Below, piece after piece: positions 26,391 to 62,310 of a DNA stretch of 64,000 bases (position 1 is its first letter; the number at the start of each line of letters is the position of its first letter). Source of the DNA: Methanobacteriota archaeon (GTDB lineage Archaea > Thermoplasmatota > Poseidoniia > Poseidoniales > Thalassarchaeaceae); the NCBI GenBank assembly GCA_002726275.1, contig PBSO01000025.1:2147-66146 (forward strand). Direction: 5' to 3'. The notes under the pieces were generated by a model. That model was not told where the DNA came from. It saw only the letters and a list, made by a program, of their open reading frames with translations, and searched no databases. Made by a program: the position numbers and the translations under genes.

Positions 26391-27167
26391 CTAAACATAT
26401 AGGTCGAGTATTGCCAATAGGCACTCCGAAATACTGGCTCTCATGGATGAAGCCATGGAGTCAACCGCATGGTGATCTATCTTCGCTGATGGGTCTCCGG
26501 GCTCTCTTCCCGCTGCCCAATTCGATGAGCAAGAAAGTGCGACATGTGGGACACCTGTTTCGGATACCAGCCTTGACTCAGGTCCGAGGGTCATTCCAAC
26601 TACGTGCGCACCTAGCCGTTCCAAGGCGTCAATCTCCGCAGAACTCTCGAATTGAGGTCCGACACACTGGGCGACAATTAGATTGTCTGGAACGTGCTCC
26701 TGTGATGAGGACAATGCCACCTTGCACGCATCTGAGGCATTCCTGTCAAAAGGGGATGTTCTATCGGCGTGAGTTGCGTCGTCATCATGAAAGGTCCATG
26801 GTCTAATTGAAAGATCCAAAACATCTCCAGAAATTCCAATGATACCTGGAGGGAAATTCTCGATTAACGACCCTACTGAGTTGATACTCAATACGATATC
26901 CGGCTGGCAGCTAATGGCAGCTTGTACATTTGCTCTGTGTTCAATCATGTGAGGCGGAGTTCGGGACGTTCCATCTCCATGATGCCTGTCAATAATTACG
27001 ATGTCACCTGCACCAGTGGAGACAATTGCTGCTGGGACCTGTCCCCAGTCAGTATCGATTCTGACATGTGAAGCTTGAGTGTTCCAAGCGGATGACATCT
27101 CATCCGAGAGTGCGCTCATCCCAGTGCCGCATAGCACCGCTATGCGGGCCATTATATCACTCCTCAA
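26391..27167 (-). CDS. purine nucleoside / 5'-methylthioadenosine phosphorylase (PNP/MTAP family)
   Basis: RIAVLCGTGMSAL (phosphate-binding G-x-G loop), IDRHHGDGTSRTPPHMIEHRANVQAA, SVGSLIENFPPGIIGISGDVLDLS (PNP-family GSL/DxxD region). Confidence 0.6.
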   Translation of the reverse strand: MRSDIMARIAVLCGTGMSALSDEMSSAWNTQASHVRIDTDWGQVPAAIVSTGAGDIVIIDRHHGDGTSRTPPHMIEHRANVQAAISCQPDIVLSINSVGSLIENFPPGIIGISGDVLDLSIRPWTFHDDDATHADRTSPFDRNASDACKVALSSSQEHVPDNLIVAQCVGPQFESSAEIDALERLGAHVVGMTLGPESRLVSETGVPHVALSCSSNWAAGREPGDPSAKIDHHAVDSMASSMRASISECLLAILDLYV

Positions 27168-28068
27168 GTCGGGCTATGAGGTCTGACTTCTTGCCCGAAA
27201 CTGGTTTACCAGCGGCTTTGAGCAATTCCTTCAGTTCCGCGACCTTTAGAGAAGAGTAGTCAACCTCGGAGTCGTCATTATCTTGCTCCTGAGCATTATC
27301 TGCATCTCCCCCGATGGCCTCATCTTCAACCCCATCATCAGATGGTTCTGAAATATCTGCTGAGGCCTCGGCAGCAGCCAAGACATCGGATTCCTCGGCG
27401 ACAGCAGCAGCGTCTGCCCTCTCTTGTGCGTGAATCTCCTCCAGTGTTGGACCGTCGTCAACAACTACTCCGGATTGAATCAATTGGGTCCTTCTAATCA
27501 TTACTGCCCTAATGGGGGTAATCTTGGATGTTCCTTCCTTGATCTTGGCCTCTAATTCGCCATCCATCACTGATTTCTGCATATCGACCCAGGTCGATGA
27601 TGCCCCGGTCTTCAGAATGATGTTTCTTGCAATGGTCCTAATTTCGTTCTTCTGACTAGACTTCGCCCTTTCCCTAGTAATAATCAGGGGCTTGAATCTG
27701 ACATAATATCCGTCCTCTGTTACAATGTCGACAGTGTCGTCAATTTTCCCCCTGTCTCGACGGATTTGTCTTCTAATGTGGTCTTGCATCATCTGGTGAC
27801 CTATGAATTCGGTTAGAGCGTCCGTACCTAGTACATCTACCACCCTGAATCGTATCTTTACATGCATCTTTGAGAAATCCCCATCTAGTTCATTCTGCAT
27901 AATCTCGAAATTCCTCCCGATCAACATCTCTGGCTCCTCGGCCAGGGTCTCACCGATAACTCTGAATGACCATGGATTTCTAGGTGCTCTAATTGAGAAC
28001 CACCTCTTGGACTTCCACTTGTCCCTCTGCCTACGTGCCGCTGCTCTTGCCTTTGCGCCCTTTGCCAT
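27157..28068 (-). CDS. rps3ae: 30S ribosomal protein S3Ae (eS1) with C-terminal acidic linker and SAP domain
   Basis: N-terminal MAKGAKARAAARRQRDKWKSKRWFSIRAPRNPWSFRVIGETLAEEPEMLIGRNFEIMQNELDGDFSK is the canonical S3Ae. Residues ~215-303 are an Asp/Glu/Ala-rich linker. The C-terminus ends LKVAELKELLKAAGKPVSGKKSDLIARLEE (SAP motif). Confidence 0.7.
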   Translation of the reverse strand: MAKGAKARAAARRQRDKWKSKRWFSIRAPRNPWSFRVIGETLAEEPEMLIGRNFEIMQNELDGDFSKMHVKIRFRVVDVLGTDALTEFIGHQMMQDHIRRQIRRDRGKIDDTVDIVTEDGYYVRFKPLIITRERAKSSQKNEIRTIARNIILKTGASSTWVDMQKSVMDGELEAKIKEGTSKITPIRAVMIRRTQLIQSGVVVDDGPTLEEIHAQERADAAAVAEESDVLAAAEASADISEPSDDGVEDEAIGGDADNAQEQDNDDSEVDYSSLKVAELKELLKAAGKPVSGKKSDLIARLEE

Positions 28069-49732: not shown

Positions 49733-50085
49733 CGCTTCCTAGGTGGCCTCTCAAGTCCCATCCTTTCCCTGACCAGTCGGATCTTGCCCGACTTAGCCAC
49801 GGTCGAAATTGATTTGATCGAGTTTAGGGTAGAAATGGCACTATCGGAGTCGGGAAGAGAGACCCTTAGTATGCAGAGGACTGGTTTCTGGGAGTTCGCA
49901 AAGTCATAGAGTCGCCACCCCATATCGCCCAGTGTCTTCTCAAGTATCGCCTCCATCGCAGATCTGTCCTGAACGATATTTTCCACTTGGAATCCTATCC
50001 ATCTGTGTTTGCCCCTAGAAGCCTTTCTCTGCCTCGCCACGATAGCTCGGAAGGGGCATCCACTTAACGCATGATGGGTAATCAA
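49729..50085 (-). CDS. candidate RNase P protein component Pop5/Rpp14-like
   Basis: QRKASRGKHRWIGFQVE matches the Pop5 N-terminal R-x-K-x-RY-h-x-F-E-h pattern. ~118 aa. 4-bp overlap with the upstream FtsZ-like gene. Confidence 0.35.
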   Translation of the reverse strand: MITHHALSGCPFRAIVARQRKASRGKHRWIGFQVENIVQDRSAMEAILEKTLGDMGWRLYDFANSQKPVLCILRVSLPDSDSAISTLNSIKSISTVAKSGKIRLVRERMGLERPPRKR

Positions 50086-50996
50086 TCGAGTCCACTGACT
50101 ACCGCAACAAGCCGGAGTCTGCCCACCATGTCATCACTGGTTCTGGCACCCATAATAACCTGGCAATCCGGATCCATGGATGATACGAAAGCATCGGTAA
50201 TCTGATCCAGATGTGCCAGAGTCATGTCGGGCCCTCCTTCCAATTGAACGAGGCATCCCTTCGCGCCTCTGATTTCTATCTCGGATAGGGGTGAGTTACG
50301 TGCCATTTCTACAACCTTCTCAGGAAGTTCGGTCGTACCCGTACCAACAATCAATGTGGCGTTCCCAGGTTTTTCTATTATCGAACGCATGTCCATCAAA
50401 TCCAAATTTATTGTCCCTACCTCTGCTATAGTGGTCACTAGCCCCTCTATCAGCTCCTCTATCCAACCGGACCCAGTGATCCAGTCTGTCTTACGCTGCC
50501 TTGCCTGCCAAGCGAGCCTCTCCATACTCACCCTAATGCAGACATGGGAGTTGAAATCCAATCCCGAAATGGCCTCATTGGCTATAGAGCACCTCAGAGG
50601 CTGTTCTGCGAAGGGGAGTCCGGCGATTGAAAGAACTATGCAGCCCCTTTGTTTGGCGACAGAAGCGATTTCCGAAGATGCCCCAGAACCCATTCCCCCG
50701 CCCAGTCCGGTAAGAATCATCATTATTTCTGCCCTCTCGATCAGGGGCATTACGGAATCTAGTCCCTCCCTCAATCTGTGAGTGGCCATCATTGGCAAGG
50801 CTGCGGAGCCCCTGCCCTCACCTCCCGCATCGAGAAATAAGCAGTTTGCAGTGTTGGCACCTTCAAAGGAAGACTCGTCCGCATCAATTAGAAGAAGCTC
50901 TGATAAATCCTGACAACTAGTATGCGCCTGCCTGGCCCAGATGCAACCTATGCCCCCTACACCGACAATGAGGATGGCCCCCTCCTCCATGGTCAT
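50082..50996 (-). CDS. divergent FtsZ/tubulin-superfamily GTPase
   Basis: AILIVGVGGIGCIWA (FtsZ GVGGGG-like N-terminal loop), tubulin signature ILTGLGGGMGSGASSEIASVAKQRGCIVLSIAGLPFAEQ (cf. GMGGGTGTGAAPVIAEIAK...TKPFxFEG), T7-like GTINLDLMDMRSII. Only 304 aa and strongly diverged from canonical FtsZ. Confidence 0.55.
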   Translation of the reverse strand: MTMEEGAILIVGVGGIGCIWARQAHTSCQDLSELLLIDADESSFEGANTANCLFLDAGGEGRGSAALPMMATHRLREGLDSVMPLIERAEIMMILTGLGGGMGSGASSEIASVAKQRGCIVLSIAGLPFAEQPLRCSIANEAISGLDFNSHVCIRVSMERLAWQARQRKTDWITGSGWIEELIEGLVTTIAEVGTINLDLMDMRSIIEKPGNATLIVGTGTTELPEKVVEMARNSPLSEIEIRGAKGCLVQLEGGPDMTLAHLDQITDAFVSSMDPDCQVIMGARTSDDMVGRLRLVAVVSGLD

Positions 50997-51024
50997 GCCA
51001 TGTATGTCTAGTGTTTAGAGTGTA

Positions 51025-51423
51025 CTAGTCATAAGAGATGTATCTCTGATATCTTCTCCTCTCGTCTCTCGCCCATGCATTATCTGGTTCTATTTCTAAG
51101 ACCTTGTCATAGTACTCTATTGCAGCCTCAAAATCTGAGAGATGCCTGCCGTTCATATGCCCGAGGATGTTGAGAACAGGGACACAGCTGGGATCATCCT
51201 CGAGCATGGAAAGAAGAATCTCCTCTGCGCCTGAAATGTCCATCATCTCCATCTTGTCTTCAGCAGAATCGAGAAGCGAAACTTGAGTTTCGGATAGCCT
51301 ATACAGGTTGCGCCAATTGGGATTCGCCATGGCATCCCTAGGGGCTCTTTCCGTATTAGTTTGGTGAGTAACTGGAATCATCCTAAATGTGGGTTTCAGG
51401 GGCAAGTTACAAGTTGACGACAT
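51025..51423 (-). CDS. small hypothetical protein with TPR-like helical repeat
   Basis: AAIEYYDKVLEIEPDNAWARDERRRY resembles one TPR. Start uncertain. Confidence 0.3.
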   Translation of the reverse strand: MSSTCNLPLKPTFRMIPVTHQTNTERAPRDAMANPNWRNLYRLSETQVSLLDSAEDKMEMMDISGAEEILLSMLEDDPSCVPVLNILGHMNGRHLSDFEAAIEYYDKVLEIEPDNAWARDERRRYQRYISYD

Positions 51424-51477: not shown

Positions 51478-52287
51478 ATGAGGTCCGCTCTGACAAGCTC
51501 CAGAAGGCTGTTCGTGATGGGGGCCGTCGCACTCCTTCTCGCAGGGGGTGTTCAGGCCTTCCACACAGGCGTAGGAGGGGACGCGAATGGGGACGGGGAT
51601 GTGTCCATAGCAGGTTGCACATGCCATTCAGAAGAACCAGACAACTCAGTCACACTAATCCTGGCCGAAGTTCCCCATAGGTACCAACCGGGAGTAACCT
51701 ATGACATGAAAATACAGATTGTTGGAGGGCCCGATATAGACTCTTCTTCTGGAACTGCGGGTTTCTCAATGAAGATATCAGCTGGAACTCTTGGGGCCTC
51801 GGAAGGGTCTGAAAACTTGGTGCAAAACTGGGAAGAAGATCCGCAAACATTGACGCATACTGATCCGGGTTCACAGACGGCGGATAGAACATGGCACATC
51901 TCATGGACGGCACCGCCCTCTGATTCTGGCATAGTTACGCTGTGGCTTGCAGGAAACTCGGTGAATGGAGATGGGGTCCCTTCTGATTTAGACAGATGGA
52001 ACAGACTTAGCACTACCATAGATGAGGGCGATGACAGTGGTACAAGAACCGTTTTTGCAGGCAATGGGGACATAGAGCCGCCGGCTCCTGGAGAAGAGAG
52101 CATAGACCTTCACCACATGGGAGCGGGATTGCGGGCGCATTGGCTTGGGCTCCTTGGTTTCGCAGCCGTGGTCATCGTGATAATTTTCTGTGGACTAATG
52201 CTCAGGTACGGATTCTCAAGGCACTACGAAGGAAGGAGCAATCTTCTGAGATTGCGGATTAAGCACCAGAGGAGAGGTGATCAGTAA
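51478..52287 (+). CDS. secreted G-C-x-C-H motif domain protein with single C-terminal TM anchor (paralog of 7455..8573); first gene of Rieske/cyt b operon
   Basis: Signal LFVMGAVALLLAGGVQA, then IAGCTCHSEEPD. Conserved block WHISWTAPPSDSGIVTLWLAGNSVNGDGVPSDLDRWNRLSTTI. C-terminal WLGLLGFAAVVIVIIFCGLML TM plus basic tail. Stop overlaps the start of the next gene. Confidence 0.45.
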   Translation: MRSALTSSRRLFVMGAVALLLAGGVQAFHTGVGGDANGDGDVSIAGCTCHSEEPDNSVTLILAEVPHRYQPGVTYDMKIQIVGGPDIDSSSGTAGFSMKISAGTLGASEGSENLVQNWEEDPQTLTHTDPGSQTADRTWHISWTAPPSDSGIVTLWLAGNSVNGDGVPSDLDRWNRLSTTIDEGDDSGTRTVFAGNGDIEPPAPGEESIDLHHMGAGLRAHWLGLLGFAAVVIVIIFCGLMLRYGFSRHYEGRSNLLRLRIKHQRRGDQ

Positions 52288-52736
52288 TGAAGGACGATAT
52301 TGTTCTGAAGATGCTCAGACAGGTAGCTTCAGGTGAGGTTAGTGTGGATGATGCCAGGGAGGCTCTCGAGGGAGTAAGTCTTAGTGAAGAAATTTATGAG
52401 TCTGCTGTGAATCATGGAGTTTTCAACGAAGCGTCACCTGGTTCGATTGTCAGAGCTAGCGTTTCACCCTCCGGTGACTCTTGGCTGATCATATTGGTTG
52501 GCCTGTGGGGGATTGTTTGGTCCCTATATTGGGCAGGCTCCTTGTCCTATGGTCTATACAACCACTGGGATCAACAATTACTGTCATTTTTCTTGGGCAT
52601 GCTTCTGTTGACGGTTATCATAATGGGAATGATATACATGAAATACGTTATGCCCGACATACTCATAGTCAAGAAGAGGAGAGGGAAGTACATAACTCCG
52701 AAAGACCCTGATTCCTGGAAACAATACAAGGTGTGA
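52287..52736 (+). CDS. small membrane protein (two TM helices) in Rieske/cyt b operon
   Basis: 149 aa. Soluble N-terminal 60 aa then WLIILVGLWGIVWSLYWAG and LSFFLGMLLLTVIIMGMIYM. Translationally coupled on both sides. Confidence 0.35.
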   Translation: MKDDIVLKMLRQVASGEVSVDDAREALEGVSLSEEIYESAVNHGVFNEASPGSIVRASVSPSGDSWLIILVGLWGIVWSLYWAGSLSYGLYNHWDQQLLSFFLGMLLLTVIIMGMIYMKYVMPDILIVKKRRGKYITPKDPDSWKQYKV

Positions 52737-53593
52737 TTATGGCTAGGAAATTCAAGCTCAGACCCATTGAAGGGGACGATTCTGGATCTGATGCTGAAGC
52801 TCCTTTCATAGATAGGAGAGAGTTCATGAGGCACTCATTTAATACTGCAGCCGGAGTAATAACAGTGGCTAGCCTAGGAAGTGTTGGATTCGCTTCTTTG
52901 TTAATGGGGCAATCAGAATCATCCGGAGGAGATTCGGCCGTTAGATACTGGGTTCCGACAGGTGCTGAGGACACAGTCTGGTATGGCGACAGCCACCTAG
53001 AGGCGATGACATACCAGTCATTCGTCGATGCTGCTGCAAGTTCATCAACTGGGATGGCGGCAGCCCAGGGAGTTTGGTCAGGCATGCCAATCAACGCCAT
53101 CTACGTCCCCCATGATGAGAATAAGACAGAGTCACTGGTTGAGAACAAGCCAAGATTCCAATTCCTAGATGGGTACTCGGTAGATGGGGGATATGTGGGG
53201 TCCGGATTTGAGATGGAGGATGACTCACAATACGAACCCCTGAGAGTCCACGACAACCTAATCATAGTTTTCTCAAGGTGCCCCCACTTGTGCTGCATAC
53301 CCGGTTGGCAACTGGTCGCAAATGAGTTCACTGCAGACCAATGGTTCCCCAACGGAACTGATTCGGGCGGCAATAAGCTCTTCTGTATCTGCCATTCTTC
53401 AAGATTCGATCCTACTGTTATTGAGAAAAACCGGAATACAAATCGCTCTGATGGTTCTCAGTTCGAGTACTTCGGGATAAAGAGAGTGGGGGGCCCTGCT
53501 CCCGTGGGCATGCCGCTGGTTCCATTCGTACTAAATGGTGATATGATTGAGGCACTTCCTGATTTCAAAGACTGGTATGCATATTGTGACTGA
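52733..53593 (+). CDS. Rieske [2Fe-2S] iron-sulfur protein with Tat signal
   Basis: Twin-arginine motif IDRREFMRHSFNTAAGV. Rieske box I CPHLCC (C-x-H-x-x-C) and box II CICHSSRFD (C-x-C-H-x-S) 17 residues apart, the usual box spacing. Confidence 0.7.
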   Translation: MIMARKFKLRPIEGDDSGSDAEAPFIDRREFMRHSFNTAAGVITVASLGSVGFASLLMGQSESSGGDSAVRYWVPTGAEDTVWYGDSHLEAMTYQSFVDAAASSSTGMAAAQGVWSGMPINAIYVPHDENKTESLVENKPRFQFLDGYSVDGGYVGSGFEMEDDSQYEPLRVHDNLIIVFSRCPHLCCIPGWQLVANEFTADQWFPNGTDSGGNKLFCICHSSRFDPTVIEKNRNTNRSDGSQFEYFGIKRVGGPAPVGMPLVPFVLNGDMIEALPDFKDWYAYCD

Positions 53594-53602
53594 GGTGAAA
53601 GG

Positions 53603-54469
53603 ATGATTCAATTTTGGTTCCTATGGCTGTTCATCGCTATTGTCGTGGTAATTGTCGCACTGACTCTGAGAAAGGAGCGGGAGGAAATGCCTCGAAAGGA
53701 CATTCTGAGAGCCGTTGAAACGAGTGCTGGCAGTATGGGCCTAGCAGAAAAAACGTTCCTTTGGGCGTTCTCATGGTTGGATACCCGGTTCAGAATTCAG
53801 GACTATTGGGGGATGAGCAGGGATGCTTACTATGGAATGCACAGGCAAATGCCTATGACGCACGCTGAAAAATATAAACTCAGAATAATCTGGTATTGGT
53901 ACCCCTTGTATTGTCTGGGCGGAATCTCGTTCCTGGCATTCGTCATACTGGTAATCACTGGAACTGTTCTTGGATTATATTATGTCCCGGGAGGAGAGGG
54001 GGATCCCACTCCTGCATACAGCAGCATGGAATTCATCATGACTCAATTGCCATTTGGGTACATCATTCGATCAATCCACCATTGGACTACACACTTCATG
54101 GTGGCAGCTGTATTCCTGCACATGTGCAGAGTTTACTTCACAGGAGCATACAGGAATCCAAGGGAGTTGAACTGGCTAATTGGGGTGGCTCTTATGTTCT
54201 TCACCATTTTCTTTGGCTATTCGGGATACTTGCTCCCCTGGGACAGTTTGGCATTTGGTGCAGCTACCATTGGAATCAACATGGCCATGAGTACGCCTCT
54301 GATTGGAGAGTGGGTAGCAAATGCGATGTTTGCTGGTACATCCCTGTCGGGACAGACAGTAACGAGGATGTATTTCCTCCATGTTTTCATACTGCCCGTG
54401 GTTGTTACCGCGTTGATTCTTGCCCATCTCTTCATAGTCTGGGCCCAAGGAATTGCGGAGCCGCATTGA
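53603..54469 (+). CDS. cytochrome b (b6/N-terminal four-helix haem-binding domain) with extra N-terminal TM helix
   Basis: IRSIHHWTTHFMVAAVFLHMCRVYFTGAY (helix B His pair), GYSGYLLPWDSLAFGAATIG (cf. GYVLPWGQMSFWGATVI), LHVFILPVVVTALILAHL (helix D His pair). Confidence 0.75.
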   Translation: MIQFWFLWLFIAIVVVIVALTLRKEREEMPRKDILRAVETSAGSMGLAEKTFLWAFSWLDTRFRIQDYWGMSRDAYYGMHRQMPMTHAEKYKLRIIWYWYPLYCLGGISFLAFVILVITGTVLGLYYVPGGEGDPTPAYSSMEFIMTQLPFGYIIRSIHHWTTHFMVAAVFLHMCRVYFTGAYRNPRELNWLIGVALMFFTIFFGYSGYLLPWDSLAFGAATIGINMAMSTPLIGEWVANAMFAGTSLSGQTVTRMYFLHVFILPVVVTALILAHLFIVWAQGIAEPH

Positions 54470-54478
54470 GGAATCATT

Positions 54479-57268
54479 ATGGGGATCGTAGAAAGGTTTG
54501 GAAGGATTGCTGATACATACATCAGCGAACGCGACAAGCTCCTAGAGGCAGAGACTGAGCGTAGGAGGACATTCATTGGCCATCCTTTCTGGCCCACAGA
54601 GGTCCTAAGGGATACAATCATACTTGCATCAATAGTAATGGTAATCGCATTCTATTCTTGGTTGATACCCCCTCCCCTACACAGTGCGGCAGACCCCTTT
54701 GCACAAGCAGGATTCGTTTTCCCAGACTGGTATGTTCTTTTCTCATATGGGTACCTTAGGTGGGGCGAGTATCTCCCACAATTCGTCATACCTGCAGGCC
54801 CTATTGGTGAGTTCTTTGGATCTCCCGTGATAAACTGGAACTCAGCTTGGTGGGGTGCGGCAATTACTGGACTACCTGTAGGAATACTGGCCTTGCCACC
54901 TTTCCTCCCCGGGAGGGAGAAGAGAGGTGTTGAGGATCCTTGGTTCGCCACTGCTGGAGCTGTTTACCTAGCGCACGTGTGGTTCATCTCAGTATTCTCC
55001 ATCAATATCTTCCTTGACCTGTATGCAAAAGACCGTTCTGACTTCTGCTTTGTTGGAACGCATGGAGAGTTCCTTTGTGGAAGGCAGTCTCCATGGTCTG
55101 CTGAAGTATTCAACGCGATACCGTGGATACTAACAGGTGTTTTCATATTCGCCATTATTTTCTTCCCCCTTAGAAAATTCTTGCTGAACTCAGTTGGATC
55201 AAGGGTGACTCCAAAAATCGGAAGGCAGGTCGCCGTAGGTTCACTCATTGCCGCGATATTGATCTCAGTTGCAACATGGCCCATCTACGAGGGTGGATTC
55301 TGGGATTACGGAGGTCTTGGGGCCATGGACGACGTTGAAGATCTTGATGGGATGAGGGGGCAGCCTTCAGATACCCTGGTCCATCAGGAACAAGGCAACG
55401 TTTGGGATGATTGGGGAAGTGAGTGTCTGCTATACGAGGACAGTTCGTACCTAGCAGCCTGGTCGGGATTAAGTAGTGAGGAAGACCCTGATGACTGGTG
55501 TGTTATTCCTGCCGAAAATTGGGTTGATTGGGGACTTTATCAACCCACGAAACTCCATTTGATTGACTATTCCGGTGCTAATGGGCATGCAGATTCAAGC
55601 ATTGGAAGAAACGCGGCTGAGGGATCTTCTTCTTACTTTGGTGATTCCTCTTTGGCCGAAGTAAGCTATGACGAGTCATCTACATTCGAAGTTGAGGATC
55701 TCGGTATTTCATCGGTGCCAGTAGATGTTGGATGCCTATTCAGAACAACTGTGAGGGGAGCTGGAGAACATACGCAGAGCCTAGTAATGAGTGATTCTAG
55801 TGGCGACATAGTATGGGAGAATGATGGAGCATCATGTGAAACTGGTACGGTATACGTCAATTCTGGATCGACATATACAATTTCTTTTTCGGTGACGACG
55901 ACTGGAATGAACGAGAGTGTTGAGGTGATTACTAGTTTCTCAGCAGTTGCTTACCAGCCCCTCCTCCTAGATGACGATGGAACTGCCCTTGTACGTTCAC
56001 AGAGTGACCTAGGTGCCTCTGATTTATCATCGCTGTCCGTAGAGAACCCAACCTATCACAAGAATCCAAAGAGTCTTGATGCCAAGCTGATTTACTCACT
56101 ATTCATCCCTTGTCTCGGAGTCGGGGCAATAGTTTTCATGCTCATGCGTAGCATGGCCAGGGGATATGAGTATGAGATGAACAAATGCTATGGCTGCGAT
56201 CTCTGTGATGATGCTTGTCCCGTGAGGCTTTTCAACGCCGGAGACAAACTAAACATCATCTACAACACATGGAATAATGAGGATGACGGAGTTCCCCTTT
56301 ACTCTTGTCTGACCTGTTCTGCTTGCACCAACGCTTGTCCGCAACTGGTCGATTATGACTCATATGTCGATATCAGGAGGAACATGATAGTAGGGGGGCC
56401 CCCTGCATCAGAGATACCCCACACAGTCCTCCAAGCAGTTTTGGCTGCGGAGGCCGAGGAGGATTCCGATTCGGACTTTATCTCCGTAGATGAATATCCG
56501 ATTGATTCCAACATTGGCTACTACCCTGGTTGTGTTGATTACCTTGACCAAGAGATGATTTTCAGCCACTTGAACGAAGGATCGATGAACTTGGGCGATG
56601 CAACGACATCTGCATTCACGCTATTTGAAGAAATGGGAGAAGAGGTGACATACCTCGGCAGAGACTTCCTGAAGTGCTGTGGTCACGATCAAAAGTGGCA
56701 AGGCATGACTGAGGTGTTTGAGAAACTAAAGGCATACAACCAGAAGAAGTTGGGAGAGAGTGGGGTCGATACATTGGTGACTTCGTGTGCAGAATGCTTC
56801 AGGACTTTTGCTCTTGACTACGAACTAGATGAAATGAAGGTCATGCACACTACCGAATTCTTAATTGAAAGTGGATTTGATATGAATCTGAGTGCGGAAG
56901 AAGATGTCACAGTGACATTCCATGACCCCTGTAGGTTAGGAAGGCAAATGAACATCTATGACCAACCAAGAGACTTGATCTCGGGCGTAGAGGGAGTGAG
57001 CCTGGTTGAAATGGAGCATCATGGCGAAGATGCATTGTGCTGTGGAGTATCCAGCATGATGAGTTGTAATGAGAATAGTCGGGCCCTCAGGGTGCAACGT
57101 TTCGAAGAGGTGAATGCCACCGGAGCCGATATCATGCTGACATCATGCCCGAAGTGTGTTTCGCACTTTGAATGCCTGAAGTTCGAAGGTGATCCTAGGC
57201 ATGATTTCGAGATTCTAGACGTTGTAAGTTTCCTAGCCAGGCAAGTTCAATCGGGCAAGTCCGATTAG
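54479..57268 (+). CDS. fusion: cytochrome b C-terminal/subunit-IV-like membrane domain + acidic extracytoplasmic insert + HdrD/GlpC-like module (2x[4Fe-4S] + two CCG domains)
   Basis: N-terminus HPFWPTEVLRDTII...PDWYVLFSYGYLRW (cf. PEWYFLPAYAILR of cyt b C-terminus/PetD). ~250-aa Asp/Glu/Ser-rich segment, then a TM helix. Then CYGCDLCDDACP and CLTCSACTNACP (ferredoxin-type), then PGCVDY...KCCGHD...TSCAEC and DPCRLG...LCCGVS...TSCPKC (CCG Cys-rich domains as in HdrD). Confidence 0.65.
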   Translation: MGIVERFGRIADTYISERDKLLEAETERRRTFIGHPFWPTEVLRDTIILASIVMVIAFYSWLIPPPLHSAADPFAQAGFVFPDWYVLFSYGYLRWGEYLPQFVIPAGPIGEFFGSPVINWNSAWWGAAITGLPVGILALPPFLPGREKRGVEDPWFATAGAVYLAHVWFISVFSINIFLDLYAKDRSDFCFVGTHGEFLCGRQSPWSAEVFNAIPWILTGVFIFAIIFFPLRKFLLNSVGSRVTPKIGRQVAVGSLIAAILISVATWPIYEGGFWDYGGLGAMDDVEDLDGMRGQPSDTLVHQEQGNVWDDWGSECLLYEDSSYLAAWSGLSSEEDPDDWCVIPAENWVDWGLYQPTKLHLIDYSGANGHADSSIGRNAAEGSSSYFGDSSLAEVSYDESSTFEVEDLGISSVPVDVGCLFRTTVRGAGEHTQSLVMSDSSGDIVWENDGASCETGTVYVNSGSTYTISFSVTTTGMNESVEVITSFSAVAYQPLLLDDDGTALVRSQSDLGASDLSSLSVENPTYHKNPKSLDAKLIYSLFIPCLGVGAIVFMLMRSMARGYEYEMNKCYGCDLCDDACPVRLFNAGDKLNIIYNTWNNEDDGVPLYSCLTCSACTNACPQLVDYDSYVDIRRNMIVGGPPASEIPHTVLQAVLAAEAEEDSDSDFISVDEYPIDSNIGYYPGCVDYLDQEMIFSHLNEGSMNLGDATTSAFTLFEEMGEEVTYLGRDFLKCCGHDQKWQGMTEVFEKLKAYNQKKLGESGVDTLVTSCAECFRTFALDYELDEMKVMHTTEFLIESGFDMNLSAEEDVTVTFHDPCRLGRQMNIYDQPRDLISGVEGVSLVEMEHHGEDALCCGVSSMMSCNENSRALRVQRFEEVNATGADIMLTSCPKCVSHFECLKFEGDPRHDFEILDVVSFLARQVQSGKSD

Positions 57269-57528
57269 CCGAAAGCTAACCATGCTGAATAGCTTGAGAG
57301 TATGGCATTTAACAAAATTCCAATAATTGTGAATTTTGCCACTCTGGAGTTCCGATACCCCAATGCTGTAAGCCAGATGAAAAATCCAATTAGTCCGCCG
57401 CAAGCAAATGATATCCAAGCTACCTCTGGAGTCAAGAATAGAACCATTGCTAACCAAATTAGGATGCCTTGCAAAAGCCCTAGTAGGGAAAGAGGGTCGA
57501 AATACCAAGGAGTATTTTCACTTTCCAT
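57265..57528 (-). CDS. small hydrophobic membrane protein (hypothetical)
   Basis: 87 aa, three hydrophobic helices. Convergent with the 929-aa gene. Could be spurious. Confidence 0.25.
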   Translation of the reverse strand: MESENTPWYFDPLSLLGLLQGILIWLAMVLFLTPEVAWISFACGGLIGFFIWLTALGYRNSRVAKFTIIGILLNAILSSYSAWLAFG

Positions 57529-57610
57529 GGTGCTCGCAAAGAGTGCACGTCATCAATATGACTGGATTCACGACCGCATAATTGAGAACCGATGACCAAC
57601 AGGGAGGGGT

Positions 57611-57943
57611 GTGACGGGCATTCCGGACCTAGAGGCGCGAAGGGCATCTCAACAGAAAAGGATCAGGATGATGCTCGATGCAATGAAGGCAGAGGACCAA
57701 GCCAAACTAAAGGGAGGCGAAAGCGCTGTTGCTTGGGTCAAAGAAGAGCAATGCATCGGATGCGACCAATGCACCATCGTATGCGATGATGATGCTATAG
57801 AATTGTACGATTCCCCATTAGCCAGTCCGATAATGGATATTGAAGTGAACAGAAAGGCCAAGATAATTCGTGAGGAGTGTACAGGGTGCCAGCTTTGTGT
57901 CTTGGCGTGCCCCACGGATGCGATACTGATGATTGACAGGTGA
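57611..57943 (+). CDS. 2x[4Fe-4S] ferredoxin
   Basis: CIGCDQCTIVCDDDAI and CTGCQLCVLACPTDAI are two C-x2-C-x2-C-x3-C(P) motifs. N-terminal 40-aa charged lead-in. Confidence 0.65.
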   Translation: MTGIPDLEARRASQQKRIRMMLDAMKAEDQAKLKGGESAVAWVKEEQCIGCDQCTIVCDDDAIELYDSPLASPIMDIEVNRKAKIIREECTGCQLCVLACPTDAILMIDR

Positions 57944-57947
57944 TGTA

Positions 57948-58241
57948 ATGGCTAGTGATGACCCAATTAGATTCGGCGCGGAATTTGGACCCAAAAGAAC
58001 AGAAAGGACAACTGGAGTATCTCTATCGACGTTCAAGAACCTAGTCTGGGTTTCCAACTTGGGAGGTCTTATTCTATGTGCCATAGCACTAGAATTCATG
58101 ATTACTGGCCAATTCCTCCTTGGCCTTGGATGTATGGTTGCAGGTGTCGCAATTGCCCTTTTCCCATCGAACTATGAGATTGTTGGGATGGAAGAGTCAT
58201 TTGAAATGAAAGAGGGTTCTGAAAGTGAAGAAGTCCAATAG
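57948..58241 (+). CDS. small membrane protein (hypothetical)
   Basis: Two hydrophobic helices (LGGLILCAIALEFMITGQFLLGLGCMVAGVAIALF). Start chosen at MASDDP to avoid overlapping the ferredoxin stop. The ORF-track start is 57933. Confidence 0.3.
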   Translation: MASDDPIRFGAEFGPKRTERTTGVSLSTFKNLVWVSNLGGLILCAIALEFMITGQFLLGLGCMVAGVAIALFPSNYEIVGMEESFEMKEGSESEEVQ

Positions 58242-59344: not shown

Positions 59345-60220
59345 TCAACTCAGCAATCTGTCTAATGCCTCATCCAGTGTTATACTTCCGGTTTCTAAAT
59401 CATCTAGCACGTCATCTAGCCCATCCGACATGATAAGCCGCGAGTCCCATATAGAAAGTAGTCTTTCAGTTATCCTTAGCCTGTTTCTCCAATCTGGTGA
59501 GGAGCATTTCTCAATTGCGACTACTAACTCCTCGACCCCCGATGAATTATGCGCTGAAACTAGATGTACTTCTGGGCGATTTTTATCGTTTCCCAATTCG
59601 AGCGAGGAACGAATTGAATCTGCTGCCCTTCTGGCACCTGGCTTATCTGACTTGTTGACTGCAATAATATCTGCGAGTTCTATGATGCCAGCCTTCTCGG
59701 CTTGTATGATGTCCCCCCTGTCAGGCCCATCAACCATCAGCACCCTATCGGCAAATGCAACTATTCTAGTCTCAGCCTGGCCAGATCCGACGGTCTCAAT
59801 GATTATTCTTGACCATCCGCAGTAACAGAGTAAATCGGCCATTGGAGACAAGAGGTGGGAGACTCCCCCTGGGTGACCCCGTGTAGCTAGGGATCTGAAG
59901 AAAACTGCGTCCCCTGAATCGGCTGAATCCATCCTCATTCGGTCTGCAAGAAGGGCCCCCCCGCTTCTGGGCGATGAGGGATCTACTGCCAATACTGCTA
60001 CCTTCTCGCCATTGTCCGCCCAGTACTCAACCAGTTTTCCAATTAGTGTGGACTTTCCCACTCCCGGAGGACCGGTGACTCCCAATGTCCAAGGCATCAC
60101 CTCTGGCAGTCCCAGTAGTTCGCCCTCTTCAATTCTGGAGAGGAGCCTAGCTAGAGACCTACGATCGCCCGATAGAGCAGCCTCAATTTGCTCTCCCAGA
60201 GGCGTCACTCCCAACGCCAT
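59345..60220 (-). CDS. meaB: methylmalonyl-CoA mutase-associated GTPase MeaB/ArgK
   Basis: P-loop GVTGPPGVGKSTLIGKL, AVLAVDPSSPRSGGALLADRMRM, and switch regions typical of MeaB. Confidence 0.8.
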   Translation of the reverse strand: MALGVTPLGEQIEAALSGDRRSLARLLSRIEEGELLGLPEVMPWTLGVTGPPGVGKSTLIGKLVEYWADNGEKVAVLAVDPSSPRSGGALLADRMRMDSADSGDAVFFRSLATRGHPGGVSHLLSPMADLLCYCGWSRIIIETVGSGQAETRIVAFADRVLMVDGPDRGDIIQAEKAGIIELADIIAVNKSDKPGARRAADSIRSSLELGNDKNRPEVHLVSAHNSSGVEELVVAIEKCSSPDWRNRLRITERLLSIWDSRLIMSDGLDDVLDDLETGSITLDEALDRLLS

Positions 60221-60642
60221 CCCGCCGACTGCCCGACACCTATTGGTTCGCCTTTCTCAATACGGTCATTACAAGCATCTAGGAAACTTAGAATTTCATC
60301 GGTTCGAGAGCCAGGTCCGAATATTGCCCTGACTCCCTGTTCAAAAACAAATTCTCTATCCCTATTGGGGATTATTCCCCCTGCGAAAACCATGACATCC
60401 CCAAGTCCTGCTTCACGGAGTCCATCACATATCTTTGGAATCAGAACGTCATGGGCACCCGATAGCGTAGAAAGACCGAGCGCCGATACATCCTCATCTG
60501 TGACGATACGGATAATCTCGGCAGGGGTCCTCCGTAAGCCTGTGTAGACGACTTCGTGACCACCGTCCCTCAGGGCCCGTGCAATTACCTTGGCCCCCCT
60601 ATCGTGACCATCGAGACCGGGTTTTGCGACCACTATTCGCAT
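60205..60642 (-). CDS. methylmalonyl-CoA mutase small subunit (cobalamin-binding domain)
   Basis: MRIVVAKPGLDGHDRGAKVIARALRDGGHEVVYTG with DxHxxG B12-binding motif (DGHDRGA) and SxL...GG pattern. Start at internal ATG 60642. Confidence 0.8.
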   Translation of the reverse strand: MRIVVAKPGLDGHDRGAKVIARALRDGGHEVVYTGLRRTPAEIIRIVTDEDVSALGLSTLSGAHDVLIPKICDGLREAGLGDVMVFAGGIIPNRDREFVFEQGVRAIFGPGSRTDEILSFLDACNDRIEKGEPIGVGQSAGWRWE

Positions 60643-60756
60643 ACTGTCTTCACATCTGCGAGTTGGTGACATGTCTTCAAGCAACCGCAGTATCGATATT
60701 TTGTCGTACTTCACTCAGGAAGGCATATTGACGGCCTCGTCCGTAATGGTACTGTA

Positions 60757-62310
60757 ATGCCTGCAGACGAAGCTCGGATCGAGGACCTCAGACGAAGAAA
60801 GGCCCAAGCTGAGGCTGGCGGGGGCCAAGCCAGGATTGCCGCTCAACATTCGAAGGGCAAGATGACTGCTAGAGAGAGAATTGGCCAGTTACTTGATGAG
60901 GGTTCTTTCATGGAGGTAGATCCCCTTGTAGAACACCGATGTAGGGACTTTGACATGGACAGGAATGTTATCCCCGGGGACGGAGTTGTGTGTGGTCACG
61001 GCACCATTGATGGGAGGACTGTGTACTGCTTCGCCCAAGATTTCACAGTTTATGGCGGATCTCTTGGAGAGATGCATGGCCTAAAAATATGCAAAATATT
61101 GGATATGGCACTAAAAACTGGTTCTCCAGTAATAGGGCTTAACGATAGTGGCGGGGCGAGAATACAGGAAGGAGTTGCAAGTCTAGGTTCGTATGCGGAG
61201 ATTTTCTTCAGGAATGTTCGAGCTAGTGGCGTTATTCCGCAGATTTCAGTAATAATGGGCCCATGTGCTGGTGGTGCGGTATATTCTCCTGCGATTACAG
61301 ACTTCGTTGTAATGGTTGACAAGACATCTCACATGTTCATAACTGGGCCGGAGGTCATCAAAACGGTCACAAACGAGGAAGTTAGTTTCGAAGACCTAGG
61401 GGGTGCGAGCACTCATGCTAGCAGATCTGGAGTAACTCACTTCACTACGGAAGATGACCAAGAGGCAATTGACGTTGTTAGGGAGTTAGTTGGACTATTG
61501 CCGTCAAACAATCTGGAGAAGCCAGTCCCACTTCCAACATCCGATCCAGTGGAGAGAGTGAGTGAGGAATTACAGGATCTGGTTCCAGATGATCCGAAGA
61601 AACCCTATGACATCATGACTGCAGTGACTGAGGTAGTAGATGATGGGGCATTCCTAGAGGTGCAGCAGGACTTCGCAAGAAACATCGTGGTTGGTTTTGG
61701 AAGGCTGGGCGGCCATACCGTTGGTGTCGTGGCAAATCAACCCGAAGTTCTAGCGGGTTGCTTAGACATTGATGCATCAGTCAAGGCTGCAAGATTCGTT
61801 AGATTCTGTGATGCTTTCAATATACCTTTACTCACGTTCGTAGATGTTCCCGGTTTCTTGCCCGGAGCGAGCCAAGAATGGGGCGGAATAATTAGACACG
61901 GGGCGAAGTTACTCTATGCGTATGCGGAAGCGACCGTGCCGAAACTTACAGTAATTACAAGAAAGGCATATGGTGGTGCCTACGACGTCATGTCTTCAAA
62001 GCATATCAGAGGCGACTACAACGTAGGTTGGCCTACTGCACAGCTGGCTGTTATGGGAGCAGAGGGGGCAGTTCAGATTATTCACAAAAGGAGGATTGAG
62101 TCATCTGGCAATCCCGAACAAGAGAGAGGGAGGCTCGTCGATGACTACACAGAGACGTTTGCAAATCCATACAGGGCCGCTGCCCTCGGCTACCTGGATG
62201 ATGTCATCCAACCCAGGGAGACAAGAATGGTGATGTCGAAAGCACTTGGTGCACTTCTAGAGAAGGAAGAGATTAGACCTGCTCGAAAACACGGCAACAT
62301 CCCACTGTGA
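60757..62310 (+). CDS. pccB: acyl-CoA (propionyl-CoA/methylmalonyl-CoA) carboxyltransferase beta subunit
   Basis: 517 aa. Two crotonase-like CT domains with [19 protein letters not shown] and VVANQP...[34 protein letters not shown] are typical of PccB/AccD5. Confidence 0.85.

Follow-up and report, generated by a model that had tools for sequence, protein, structure and literature searches.

We tentatively interpret seven genes (g1 to g7, 51478-58241) in a 64,000-nucleotide stretch of archaeal DNA, hereafter the window, as encoding the complex III of a Marine Group II (MGII, Thalassarchaeaceae-like) archaeon, a b6-type quinol oxidoreductase with an n-side electron port that would most likely serve as an inlet. 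Sequence comparison, profile searches, and structure prediction together showed that its cytochrome b is split into a b6 protein with four His ligands and a putative heme-cn cysteine and a PDWY-containing subunit IV, the latter predicted to continue into a cytoplasmic HdrD-like module.

A first-pass annotation of this DNA had described five translationally coupled genes, and reading frames g1 to g5 (51478-57268) were all recovered as listed in Table 1, with a 1-nt overlap between g1 and g2 (TAATG), a 4-nt overlap between g2 and g3 (GTGA), and 9-nt gaps at both g3-g4 and g4-g5. Shine-Dalgarno-like GGAGG/GAGG sequences lie upstream of g2, g4, g5, and g6. The ferredoxin gene that had been placed after g5 is present at 57611, but in this genome it is separated from g5 by 342 nt and an 87-amino-acid open reading frame on the opposite strand, and the unit extends beyond it to a seventh gene. 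Of the 84 loci compared, just 47, all of them MGIIb, had a match to the opposite-strand frame, and in many genomes g6 lies within 3 to 90 nt of the g5 end.

Table 1. Positions and assignments of the operon genes and of the parts of g5 in the window.
Feature	Position	Strand	Description
g1	51478..52287	+	269 aa; signal peptide, reeler-like beta-sandwich, C-terminal TM helix
g2	52287..52736	+	149 aa; DUF7318 two-helix membrane protein
g3	52733..53593	+	286 aa; divergent Rieske [2Fe-2S] protein, twin-arginine signal-anchor
g4	53603..54469	+	288 aa; cytochrome b6-type cytochrome b
g5 residues 1-271	54479..55291	+	subunit IV/cytochrome b C-terminal-like domain and two MGII-specific TM helices
g5 residues 272-536	55292..56086	+	MGII-specific folded insert
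g5 residues 537-929	56087..57268	+	last TM helix and HdrD-like module
g6	57611..57943	+	110 aa; 2x[4Fe-4S] ferredoxin, RnfB-like
g7	57933..58241	+	102 aa; two-helix hairpin membrane protein, overlaps g6 end

Genes g2 to g4 had been assigned to a two-helix membrane protein, a Tat-signal Rieske protein, and a cytochrome b with both heme-ligating His pairs, and all three assignments held. The g2 product matched DUF7318 (PF24002, 7.6e-7), with TM helices at 67-85 and 98-116; a DUF7318 gene or weak g2 homolog is also found upstream of the Rieske gene in loci L081, L082, L084, L087, L088, L089, and L090, and DUF7318 is a conserved small subunit in this family of complexes. In g3, a twin-arginine signal (RREFMRH) precedes a hydrophobic anchor helix at 40-58. 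Its match to TIGR01416 was weak (1.9e-9) and a Pfam search returned no match; its Rieske boxes, CPHLCC/CICHSS, align to CTHLGC/CPCHGS of a bc1 Rieske protein (PDB 7yr9). The g4 product matched Cytochrome_B (PF00033) at 8e-42, and its best PDB matches were cytochrome b6 chains (7e-42). It is of the four-helix b6 type with one extra N-terminal helix, and carries all four His heme ligands; no other gene in the operon is as well conserved (83-100% identity). Cys104, in a YCLGG motif, aligns to heme-cn Cys35 of b6 and confers a putative capacity to bind heme cn; MGII, L081, L082, and L087 all keep this Cys and the His residues, and L084 has lost the Cys.

This core resembles cytochrome b6f of cyanobacteria and chloroplasts and the b6-type menaquinol complexes of Firmicutes, in which cytochrome b is likewise split into a four-His b6 with a CxGG cysteine for heme cn and a distinct subunit IV whose Qo motif is P(E/D)WY; a Tat-dependent Rieske protein is also common to them and the operon. 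Unlike in these complexes, the subunit IV of g5 is extended by three helices, a domain outside the cell, and an HdrD module in the cytoplasm; DUF7318, ferredoxin, and hairpin proteins come as extra subunits; and the position of b6 Arg207 is occupied by Trp in g4. The g1 protein is reminiscent of cytochrome f in being the first-gene product, with a signal peptide, a beta-sandwich ectodomain, and a C-terminal anchor. The g1 ectodomain is extracytoplasmic (NCBIfam "choice-of-anchor V"; best Foldseek match, a reeler domain), the basic tail is invariant, and an invariant G-C-T-C-H motif lies ~20 residues past the predicted mature N terminus. No sequence similarity between g1 and cytochrome f was found, and the motif is CxCH rather than CxxCH; given also the reeler fold match, an identification of g1 as cytochrome f was not demonstrable. 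The invariant CxCH and the gene position make g1 a candidate partner for the Rieske protein on the outer face (p-side).

The g5 gene is one uninterrupted 929-codon reading frame. A split into two genes by a missed frameshift is excluded by full-length proteins of 908 to 1344 amino acids, which recur in hundreds of assemblies, and by a continuous, confident AlphaFold model. The N terminus alone gave a weak subunit IV match in the PDB (1.3e-3); a family profile (A3) bore out the proposed subunit IV-like domain, with strong matches to residues 232-354 of bc1 cytochrome b (6.5e-13) and to b6f subunit IV (1.1e-8). This domain comprises helices E, F, and G and the PDWY Qo-site motif, which is invariant in 77 homologs, and PF00032 was found in short homologs of g5. 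An acidic insert followed by a TM helix had also been described. Both are present, the insert with 265 amino acids (pI 4.05, 46 D+E versus 9 K+R, four Cys) and the helix at 537-559, where the chain returns to the cytoplasm, but two extra MGII-specific TM helices (205-242 and 245-271 in the AF2 model) precede the insert, and its acidity is no special mark, since the cytoplasmic HdrD part is almost equally acidic (pI 4.31). The insert is predicted to be folded, with a helical part and a beta-sandwich (pLDDT 85-93, strands between 379 and 491); its fold matches were weak and GOLD-domain-like (~1e-4), and it is gapped out in the alignment in all short-form relatives.

The C-terminal part was confirmed to contain two ferredoxin-type clusters and two CCG domains. 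Searches recovered PF02754 twice (5.8e-23) and the Fer4_9 4Fe-4S dicluster domain; the cubane [4Fe-4S] motifs are C570/573/576/580 and C610/613/616/620, and the two CCG (noncubane cluster) domains have all ten Cys (685, 733, 734, 770, 773; 818, 854, 855, 890, 893). Across 77 sequences, with identities as low as 33%, the stretch around Y563-C570 and 17 cluster Cys residues are invariant, and the remaining one of the 18, C734, is nearly so; E772, in C-A-E-C, is likewise invariant. The AF2 model has six helices, with K+R enriched in the loops predicted to be cytoplasmic, and thus the Fe-S module is predicted to be cytoplasmic and the insert to lie on the outer side of the membrane. Relative to the short forms, which have 3+1 helices, the MGII proteins gain a pair of helices together with the insert, so the orientation does not change. 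The first cluster motif begins ~11 residues past the last TM helix, near the membrane, where an Fe-S wire could reach the n-side hemes bH/cn.

In the mechanism that we favor, the Qo site would oxidize quinol, passing one electron via the Rieske cluster to an outside acceptor, possibly g1, and the second through the b hemes. The fused Fe-S module, g6, and g7 would form an n-side port through which redox proteins of the cytoplasm connect to heme bH/cn and the Qi site, and as an inlet this port would deliver low-potential electrons from ferredoxin-type carriers to Qi-site quinone or the b-heme chain. For an aerobic heterotroph, we consider this direction at least as likely as quinol oxidation feeding a cytoplasmic acceptor; we infer it from physiology rather than sequence. 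MGII have been described as obligate aerobes that degrade proteins and fatty acids and have an orphan "RnfB" (PMC6336850), which counts for an inlet.

Among solved structures, EMO/EtfD (ETF:(methyl)menaquinone oxidoreductase, PDB 9OJN) comes closest to the cytoplasmic module, matched at 1.4e-22 by sequence, 1.2e-41 by profile, and 7.7e-14 by fold; the module also matched the C-terminal half of TfrB (2.5e-31) and, by fold, HdrB (1.2e-7). EMO is likewise a single polypeptide with membrane helices and HdrC/HdrB-like domains, and its noncubane clusters are the point at which electrons enter from a cytoplasmic donor on their way to membrane heme and menaquinone (bioRxiv 10.64898/2026.08.18.745454), a direction that also counts for an inlet. 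Unlike the g5 complex, EMO has its own HdrE-like heme-binding helices and no Rieske protein or Qo site. That g5 is itself an ETF dehydrogenase, with the fused module docking the electron-transferring flavoprotein, beta-oxidation and amino-acid dehydrogenases therefore feeding complex III directly, and the neighboring ferredoxin incidental or a mediator, seems to us distinctly improbable. This reading draws on the Mycobacterium smegmatis EtfD/EMO being the best solved match by all three measures, on reports of EMO from menaquinone organisms growing on fatty acids, on the acyl-CoA dehydrogenases encoded by MGII, and on the methylmalonyl-CoA pathway genes that flank the operon. However, the two characterized EMOs have lost one distal CCG Cys and have a His (CxHC) where g5 has E772 (bioRxiv 10.64898/2026.08.18.745454), a signature that g5, with its invariant C-A-E-C and ten Cys, does not share. 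Moreover, ETF genes were not found in any cluster examined, the conserved neighbors being ferredoxin, FlpD, and HdrA-type genes.

Similarity to HdrDE of Methanosarcinales is of another kind: an HdrC-like 2x[4Fe-4S] and HdrB-like double CCG unit with ten Cys sits on the cytoplasmic face of a diheme membrane cytochrome b whose redox partner is a quinone-like carrier in the membrane, as in the present complex. HdrDE and EMO share with g5 a layout in which an Fe-S wire from the module could reach the membrane hemes. In contrast to HdrDE, the module is paired in the membrane with a Rieske/cytochrome b6 plus subunit IV core rather than a NarI/HdrE-type cytochrome, the link to subunit IV is covalent, and CoM-S-S-CoB is an unlikely substrate because the host is an aerobic nonmethanogen. 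Since the ten CCG Cys are kept in g5 as in catalytic heterodisulfide reductases, its module may act on a thiol/disulfide substrate. DsrMK, QmoABC, TmcBC, and HmcEF of sulfate reducers similarly carry HdrD- or HdrC-like Fe-S proteins at the cytoplasmic face of membrane cytochromes b and connect the quinone pool with cytoplasmic redox proteins, but their cytochromes b are NarI-type or other and lack a Rieske/Qo site; NCBIfam matches of g5 to DsrK, TmcB, and HmcF were weak and far below family cutoffs. In HdrDE, DsrMK, and Qmo, the HdrD-like module is an outlet from quinol, which counts against an inlet.

The anammox complexes (Kuenenia; subfamily G of Dibrova et al.) also combine a small b6-type cytochrome b, a Rieske protein, and a large cytoplasmic Fe-S oxidoreductase, which presumably exchanges electrons with hemes on the n-side (PMC5600118). 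There the cytoplasmic module is an independent NAD(P)-binding flavo-Fe-S polypeptide, whereas here subunit IV itself carries a fused HdrD/CCG module; the anammox complexes also belong to another lineage (Planctomycetota) and have other outer-face partners (multiheme c, HAO-like). The port could instead be an outlet, as the first-pass annotation had suggested, which we regard as unlikely. Quinol electrons would then be split at Qo, the high-potential electron going to the Rieske protein and the outside acceptor and the low-potential one via bL/bH and the HdrD module to a cytoplasmic disulfide, ferredoxin, or (in relatives) HdrA flavin, a Qo-bifurcation-driven source of cytoplasmic reductant such as has been proposed for anammox complexes with NAD(P) oxidoreductase subunits. 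Besides that precedent (PMC5600118), an outlet is suggested by the complete HDR-type set of ten CCG cysteines, by the nearest standalone relatives of the module, which are HdrD/TfrB-like and sometimes fused to MvhD/VhuD, and by its place as the acceptor end of quinol-oxidizing cytochromes b in HdrDE, DsrMK, and Qmo (established background; EMO preprint). However, catabolism in MGII, which are aerobic heterotrophs, supplies reduced ferredoxin and NAD(P)H (PMC6336850), and uphill electron flow is therefore not evidently needed; no candidates for a disulfide carrier such as DsrC or for CoM/CoB biosynthesis were seen near the operon; and if the b-heme electron were diverted from Qi, the sole complex III of the organism would lose half its proton yield.

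Comparison across genomes located the same fusion in MGIIa and MGIIb and shorter forms in other archaea. In the 80 MGIIb species loci, the g1-g7 order is kept wherever the contig reaches far enough, and MGIIa retains it too; g6 follows g5 in all MGII loci reaching far enough, MGIIa included. The g6 ferredoxin (Fer4_21, 3e-13; TIGR01944 rnfB, 1.7e-13) had a match in 78 of 84 loci, two of which (non-MGII L082/L083) are the Fer4 region of an HdrA-like gene; it shares 34% identity with the Fer4 portion of the L081 Fer4-FlpD protein and is a candidate cytoplasmic redox partner or subunit. For g7, matches were found in 73 of 84 loci, all MGIIb. Small open reading frames homologous to g7 follow FlpD/Fe-S genes in non-MGII clusters (L090, 91 amino acids, BLASTP 5e-12), and the g7 alignment (A5) has a gap-free core with invariant V38, E54, A70, G71, and P78.

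Shorter fusions without the insert (540-690 amino acids) occur in Thermoplasmata and Geothermarchaeales, again adjoining DUF7318, Rieske, and cytochrome b genes and in every case with MvhD/FlpD, polyferredoxin, or HdrA-like genes after them. The core outside MGII is DUF7318, Rieske, cytochrome b, fusion, Fe-S protein, and hairpin; an FlpD/MvhD-domain gene lies 1 to 4 genes downstream in 8/8 non-MGII loci (7 distinct), and three non-MGII clusters also have an HdrA-like flavoprotein gene. In these relatives, the port would be plugged into MvhD/FlpD-polyferredoxin or HdrA flavoprotein modules. The outer-face partners vary (a multiheme cytochrome c gene in L082, a cupredoxin fused to cytochrome b in L090, and Big_5 domains fused to cytochrome b in L081 and L087-L089), which supports a conserved n-side function with interchangeable acceptors. 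No FlpD/HdrA genes were found next to the operon in the MGIIb and MGIIa loci examined, and findings on relatives may therefore not transfer to MGII.

That loss is consistent with an ordinary Q-cycle complex III in which the HdrD part, ferredoxin, and hairpin are an inheritance that contributes to assembly, stabilization, or redox sensing and not to the bulk flow of electrons, and MGII genomics treated the Rieske/cytochrome b pair as a plain complex III substitute (PMC6336850). We nevertheless find so marginal a role hard to credit: purifying selection is strong on the cluster ligands of g5, on g6 (65-94% identity), and on g7 across the sampled MGII loci, and an Fe-S module of ~400 residues is maintained despite a streamlined genome.

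The suggestion that the module was undescribed stands in part. A description of an HdrD-type module fused to subunit IV was not found in the searchable literature, but the cytochrome b and Rieske pair had been termed "MGII specific (complex III)" (PMC6336850), and a Rieske/cytochrome b complex with a cytoplasmic oxidoreductase is a known concept, already published for anammox bacteria (PMC5600118); the HdrD fusion to subunit IV is what is new. The operon is the order-wide complex III of Poseidoniales and not peculiar to the window, and with its port as an inlet, the complex would combine the roles of a ferredoxin-type dehydrogenase and a quinol oxidase.

Five plus-strand genes, g1 to g5, had been described in the first-pass annotation as translationally coupled, and their coordinates and spacing bear this out: g1 and g2 overlap by 1 nt, g2 and g3 overlap by 4 nt, and gaps of 9 nt separate g3 from g4 and g4 from g5. 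Purine-rich motifs resembling ribosome binding sites lie 5′ of g2, g4, g5, and g6. The possibility that g5 is two genes or carries a frameshift is excluded, as its 929 codons contain no stop, full-length proteins of 908 to 1344 aa occur in hundreds of assemblies, and its AF2 model is continuous. In the window, g4 and g5 share a frame (53603-57268) and are parted by TGA plus three codons, so that read-through would restore a long bc1-like cytochrome b. Programmed read-through was rejected because the frame relation varies among MGII genomes (g4-to-g5 offsets of 877 or 878 nt in the MGII loci L005, L008, and L014), and the shared frame is probably a coincidence. An 87-aa hydrophobic ORF between g5 and g6 was left out of the unit because it has a match in only 47 of 84 loci (all MGIIb, 31 to 91% identity), and in some of these its strand is switched. 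It resembles a variable insertion of a small gene into an otherwise fixed operon; in loci elsewhere, g6 starts 3 to 90 nt 3′ of g5.

Features of the window and of related non-MGII loci (L handles); g1 to g5 are from the ORF list
Feature	Stretch	Coordinates	Strand	Length or content
g1	window	51478-52287	+	269 aa
g2	window	52287-52736	+	149 aa
g3	window	52733-53593	+	286 aa
g4	window	53603-54469	+	288 aa
g5	window	54479-57268	+	929 aa
Hydrophobic ORF	window	57265-57528	-	87 aa, between g5 and g6
g6	window	57611-57943		ferredoxin
g7	window	57933-58241		two-helix hairpin protein
Divergent upstream neighbors	window	50082-51423	-	FtsZ/CetZ-like tubulin gene, small TPR protein
TatC	window	6728-7453	-	
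PntAB-type transhydrogenase	window	8580-11495	-	
Genes just 3′ of operon	window	59345-62310		MeaB, B12-binding mutase subunit, propionyl-CoA carboxylase carboxyltransferase
Ribosomal protein S3Ae	window	27157-28068	-	C-terminal SAP domain
Cytochrome b with N-terminal fusion	L081	4343-6973		
Cytochrome b with N-terminal fusion	L087	5366-7984		
Cytochrome b with N-terminal fusion	L088	4151-6787		
Cytochrome b with N-terminal fusion	L089	4336-6969		
Cytochrome b with N-terminal fusion	L090	5406-6968		
Gene cluster with fusion	L084	3707-10011		Geothermarchaeales

The membrane core encoded by g2, g3, g4, and the N terminus of g5 resembles that of b6f-type complexes, in which a four-helix cytochrome b with two His pairs, a separate subunit IV with a P(E/D)W(Y/F) motif, and a Tat-exported Rieske protein with CxH...CxxH boxes are found; all three are matched here. 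The two-helix membrane protein noted earlier is g2, a DUF7318 protein with two hydrophobic helices. The g3 product carries a twin-arginine signal-anchor (RREFMRH, an RR motif with an anchor helix), and the cluster-binding boxes of a solved bc1 Rieske protein (PDB 7yr9) have aligned counterparts in its CPHLCC and CICHSS sequences. No match to the Pfam Rieske domain was found in g3, and its match to TIGR01416 was weak (1.9e-9). Because that score (37.8 bits) falls below the family cut-off of 97.4, we describe g3 as a divergent Rieske [2Fe-2S] protein with a predicted Tat-type signal, in line with the original assignment. The g4 protein matches PF00033 (Cytochrome_B, 8e-42). Among solved relatives, b6 chains from cyanobacteria and plants score best (7e-42), and actinobacterial and mitochondrial cytochromes b rank behind them. 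Alignment of residues 102 to 287 to PDB b6 recovered equivalents of His86, His100, His187, and His202, the bL and bH ligands, as anticipated from both His pairs. In addition, Cys104 of g4, which belongs to a YCLGG motif, is aligned with Cys35 of b6, the residue that binds heme cn covalently in the CxGG motif of helix A. This cysteine is kept in MGII, and of four distant relatives examined, three also have it. From these alignments, g4 is a cytochrome b6 with a putative heme-cn cysteine.

The proposed subunit IV-like nature of the g5 N terminus was weak when this region alone was compared with b6f subunit IV (1.3e-3) and strong when a profile of 77 family members was used (6.5e-13 to the C-terminal half of bc1 cytochrome b and 1.1e-8 to b6f subunit IV). 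The PDWY Qo motif is invariant in the 77 sequences, and short homologues of g5 match PF00032 (Cytochrom_B_C).

The C-terminal 370 residues of g5 contain two CxxCxxCxxxCP motifs followed by two CCG domains (PF02754 in two stretches, 5.8e-23), in agreement with the annotation of this end as HdrD/GlpC/LutA-like. The cubane motifs (C570/573/576/580-P and C610/613/616/620-P) are invariant and match Fer4_9/Fer4_8, and the CCG cysteines (685/733/734/770/773 and 818/854/855/890/893) are all present with HdrB-like spacing. Two further cysteines of the second CCG domain, C863 and C899, lie beyond the ten canonical ones yet are invariant in the 77 members; they might provide an extra ligand, form a disulfide, or belong to a metal site. 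The 77-member profile matched Mycobacterium smegmatis EtfD/EMO (1.2e-41), HdrC (2e-10), and HdrB (5e-8), the AlphaFold model matched the folds of EtfD (7.7e-14), LutA, and HdrB (1.2e-7), and 9ojn was the best PDB match of g5 by sequence, profile, and fold. A named NCBIfam equivalog for this part was sought and rejected: all matches lay far under the cut-offs (the best, the TfrB C-terminal half, at 109 versus 385 bits), as did those of its nearest standalone relatives. Public annotations of the fusion read "4Fe-4S dicluster domain-containing protein," "Fe-S oxidoreductase," or "heterodisulfide reductase subunit D." By sequence, no cofactor-binding element of a b6-type Rieske/cytochrome b core is missing, nor any of an HdrD-type four-cluster module, and all are strongly conserved. 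We regard a largely vestigial module as improbable.

AF2 predicted g5 helices at residues 39 to 62, 122 to 137, 154 to 182, 205 to 242, 245 to 271, and 543 to 559. Placing the N terminus inside, where subunit IV has it, would put the PDWY loop outside and the short basic loops (141 to 153 and 232 to 244) inside. The AF2 model and charge distribution likewise predict that the 265-residue insert (272 to 536) faces outside and that the Fe-S module is cytoplasmic. The insert contains four Cys residues and a confidently predicted beta-sandwich. The highly acidic extramembrane insert of about 250 aa noted in the first pass is present (pI 4.05), but its acidity is not a special feature, since the cytoplasmic module of g5 is nearly as acidic (pI 4.31). 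Short forms from outside MGII have three subunit IV helices and one returning helix. MGII proteins add two helices together with the insert, so orientation is kept. The first cluster motif (C570) begins eleven residues past the last helix; subunit IV and the Fe-S module are one polypeptide in which the module is modeled as cytoplasmic and near the membrane.

In b6f-type complexes cytochrome f is the Rieske acceptor, whereas this operon has no demonstrable one. The g1 protein combines a signal peptide with a "choice-of-anchor V" domain (5e-28) and ends in a C-terminal helix and an invariant tail. In 56 homologues, a G-C-T-C-H motif some 20 residues past the predicted mature N terminus is invariant. 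Foldseek ranked F-spondin reeler domains at the top (1.7e-7); cytochrome f was not among the matches listed, and sequence and profile tests of g1 against cytochrome f were negative. In our description, g1 is a membrane-anchored ectodomain of reeler-like type that has a conserved Cys/His site. Gene position makes it a candidate acceptor of the Rieske cluster; its likeness to cytochrome f is a lead only.

A scan of one genome per species yielded 225 stretches with relatives of g5. The best 80 of the 225 were all from Poseidoniales/Thalassarchaeaceae MAGs or SAGs (67 to 97% identity, full length), and in those 80 loci the order g1-g2-g3-g4-g5-g6-g7 holds wherever the contig reaches. The most conserved protein was g4 (83 to 100% identity in MGIIb loci, compared with 65 to 94% for g6). 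The operon is shared by MGIIa (Poseidoniaceae) genomes and by a 1334-aa variant, as are its FtsZ/CetZ-like and TPR flanks. The fusion was also found in sources named as Thermoplasmata. The ferredoxin gene first noted at 57611 is g6, a 2x[4Fe-4S] ferredoxin related to RnfB (NCBIfam, 1.7e-13). An orphan "RnfB" has been reported for MGII (PMC6336850), and g6 is almost certainly that protein. Homologues of g7, with an invariant membrane Glu, lie 3′ of Fe-S/FlpD genes in non-MGII clusters.

Elsewhere in the window, the divergent FtsZ/CetZ-like tubulin and TPR genes upstream keep their synteny in MGIIa and MGIIb. The window also encodes TatC, relevant to Rieske protein export, a PntAB-type transhydrogenase, and, just 3′ of the operon, methylmalonyl-CoA pathway genes, all of which fit a catabolic lifestyle on fatty acids and amino acids. 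In the ribosomal protein S3Ae gene, a SAP domain is fused at the C-terminal end (2.6e-12), a combination that looks uncommon.

Searching 1.8 billion representatives exhaustively with HMMER extended the family beyond MGII, to fusions of 543 to 626 aa (35 to 42% identity), a 789-aa form, and a 445-aa protein in which subunit IV is joined to a dicluster domain and the CCG part is absent. A profile search gave about forty short-fusion clusters, each with precomputed Pfam matches to PF00032 and CCG; their named sources are Thermoplasmata or Geothermarchaeales, names being missing for most. We read eight genomic contexts outside MGII, seven of them distinct. In four Thermoplasmata-like loci the order is DUF7318, Rieske, a Big_5::cytochrome b protein (~875 aa), the fusion, a polyferredoxin::FlpD protein (~500 aa), and the hairpin protein. 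A pair of near-identical loci encodes a multiheme cytochrome c, a small protein, Rieske, cytochrome b, the fusion, and HdrC-like, HdrB-like, HdrA-like, and FlpD proteins. A locus beside an A-type ATPase operon encodes DUF7318, a Rieske-like protein, a cupredoxin::cytochrome b protein, the fusion, an HdrA-like protein, an Fe-S protein, FlpD, and the hairpin protein. The Geothermarchaeales locus (L084) runs DUF7318, Rieske-like, cytochrome b, fusion, FrhB-like, HdrA-like, FlpD, a second HdrD-like gene, and a GcvH-like lipoyl-carrier gene, a cluster reminiscent of sulfur-oxidizing sHdr/LbpA systems. These gene orders therefore show that the cytoplasmic side is constant (the fusion with Fe-S, MvhD, or HdrA-type proteins after it), while the outer-face partner changes (multiheme c, cupredoxin, or Ig-like domains, and g1 in MGII). 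The domains fused to the N termini of non-MGII cytochromes b are large and extracytoplasmic, consisting either of Big_5 Ig-like repeats (~600 aa) or of a plastocyanin-like cupredoxin with Big_7. The cupredoxin::cytochrome b fusion would be a Rieske acceptor covalently bound to cytochrome b.

HdrD-type modules are known on membrane cytochromes in HdrDE, DsrMK, Qmo, Tmc/Hmc, and EMO. HdrD combines a ferredoxin-like domain with two CxxCxxCxxxC(P) motifs and two five-Cys CCG domains, and g5 has both. Its partner HdrE is a NarI-type diheme cytochrome b; the operon has no such gene and encodes cytochrome b6/subunit IV instead. The substrate of HdrD is CoM-S-S-CoB, whereas the host group here has been described as an aerobic heterotroph (PMC6336850). 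EMO, like g5, has HdrC/HdrB-like cytoplasmic domains and membrane helices in one polypeptide. It differs in having its own HdrE-like heme-b membrane domain, while the membrane part of g5 is subunit IV-like and the hemes are on g4; subunit IV of b6f has no heme ligands of its own. SaEMO and MsEMO have modified noncubane sites, with a His in the first CxxC and one distal Cys replaced (bioRxiv 10.64898/2026.08.18.745454). This signature is absent from g5, where C770-A-E772-C773 and C733-C734-G align with C581-P-H583-C584 and C538-T539-G of MsEMO, and E772 and the aligned Cys are invariant or nearly so across the family. Neither the window nor the related loci examined contained ETF genes. Despite the likeness to EMO, we consider an ETF-specific role of the module to be doubtful.

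Anammox bacteria have Rieske/cytochrome b complexes with a cytoplasmic oxidoreductase subunit, and these complexes have been discussed as models of an ancestral cytochrome-b-anchored dehydrogenase (PMC5600118). There, a separate NAD(P)/FAD-binding Fe-S subunit is encoded in the operon, whereas the MGII operon has no flavoprotein gene; HdrA-like flavoproteins occur in some non-MGII relatives only. An August 2026 survey of noncubane-cluster proteins lists HdrE-type heme-b domains or none as partners, and a Rieske/cytochrome b core is absent from it (bioRxiv 10.64898/2026.08.18.745454). Papers on MGII name cytochrome b, Rieske, and RnfB one by one and speak of the arrangement as an MGII-specific complex III (PMC6336850). 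In the searchable full-text literature, a scope outside which subscription-only reviews fall, no account of subunit IV fused to HdrD turned up. Rieske/cytochrome b complexes with a cytoplasmic oxidoreductase and HdrD modules on membrane cytochromes are known already; we take the fusion of subunit IV to HdrD to be the new feature.

By the precedent of the module-heme pairs in HdrD-HdrE and EMO, the Fe-S module would trade electrons with heme bH/cn. We tentatively favor entry of electrons into the complex via the module, because MGII are aerobic degraders of protein and fatty acids (PMC6336850), the strictly conserved neighbor is a ferredoxin, and the closest solved relative is an inlet. The opposite direction, in which bifurcation at Qo feeds a cytoplasmic acceptor, would agree with the retention of all ten CCG cysteines, as in catalytic heterodisulfide reductases, and with the lack of EMO-specific changes in g5; it keeps some appeal on that account but seems less likely than entry. 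For the FrhB- and HdrA-bearing relatives, a coherent scheme would be flavin-based bifurcation in which quinone is the high-potential acceptor.

A further reading, to which we give little weight, is that of a near-"ancestral" archaeal b6f-like complex, combining a heme-cn b6, a cytochrome-f-like acceptor whose CxCH site is unprecedented, and a covalently attached, ferredoxin-docking Fe-S dehydrogenase module on the cytoplasmic side. If true, it would provide a natural ferredoxin:quinone reductase inside a Rieske/cytochrome b complex, a living "membrane-anchored dehydrogenase" stage of the kind proposed for bc complex origin, and, in the HdrA-bearing relatives, flavin-based and Qo-based bifurcation coupled in one assembly. 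Whether chloroplast b6f has ferredoxin:quinone reductase activity in cyclic electron flow has been a matter of long debate.

Marine Group II, which rank with the most abundant archaea in the surface ocean, remain uncultured. Their "missing" complex III has been noted before and not dissected; here it takes the form of a seven-gene b6-type assembly with an HdrD-type module on subunit IV, a design that recurs in other archaea beside MvhD/HdrA modules. The complex is a natural b6-type system in which an Fe-S wire would be attached at the cytoplasmic heme bH/cn side, which bears on the ferredoxin:quinone reductase question for photosynthetic b6f. The family can also be compared with the proposal that cytochrome-b-anchored dehydrogenases gave rise to bc complexes. 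A Rieske/cytochrome b partner is an addition to the known membrane modules of CCG proteins, being absent from the August 2026 survey (bioRxiv 10.64898/2026.08.18.745454). For MGII, the design offers a concrete model, open to test, of a route by which electrons carried by ferredoxin or flavoproteins might pass into (or out of) the respiratory chain.
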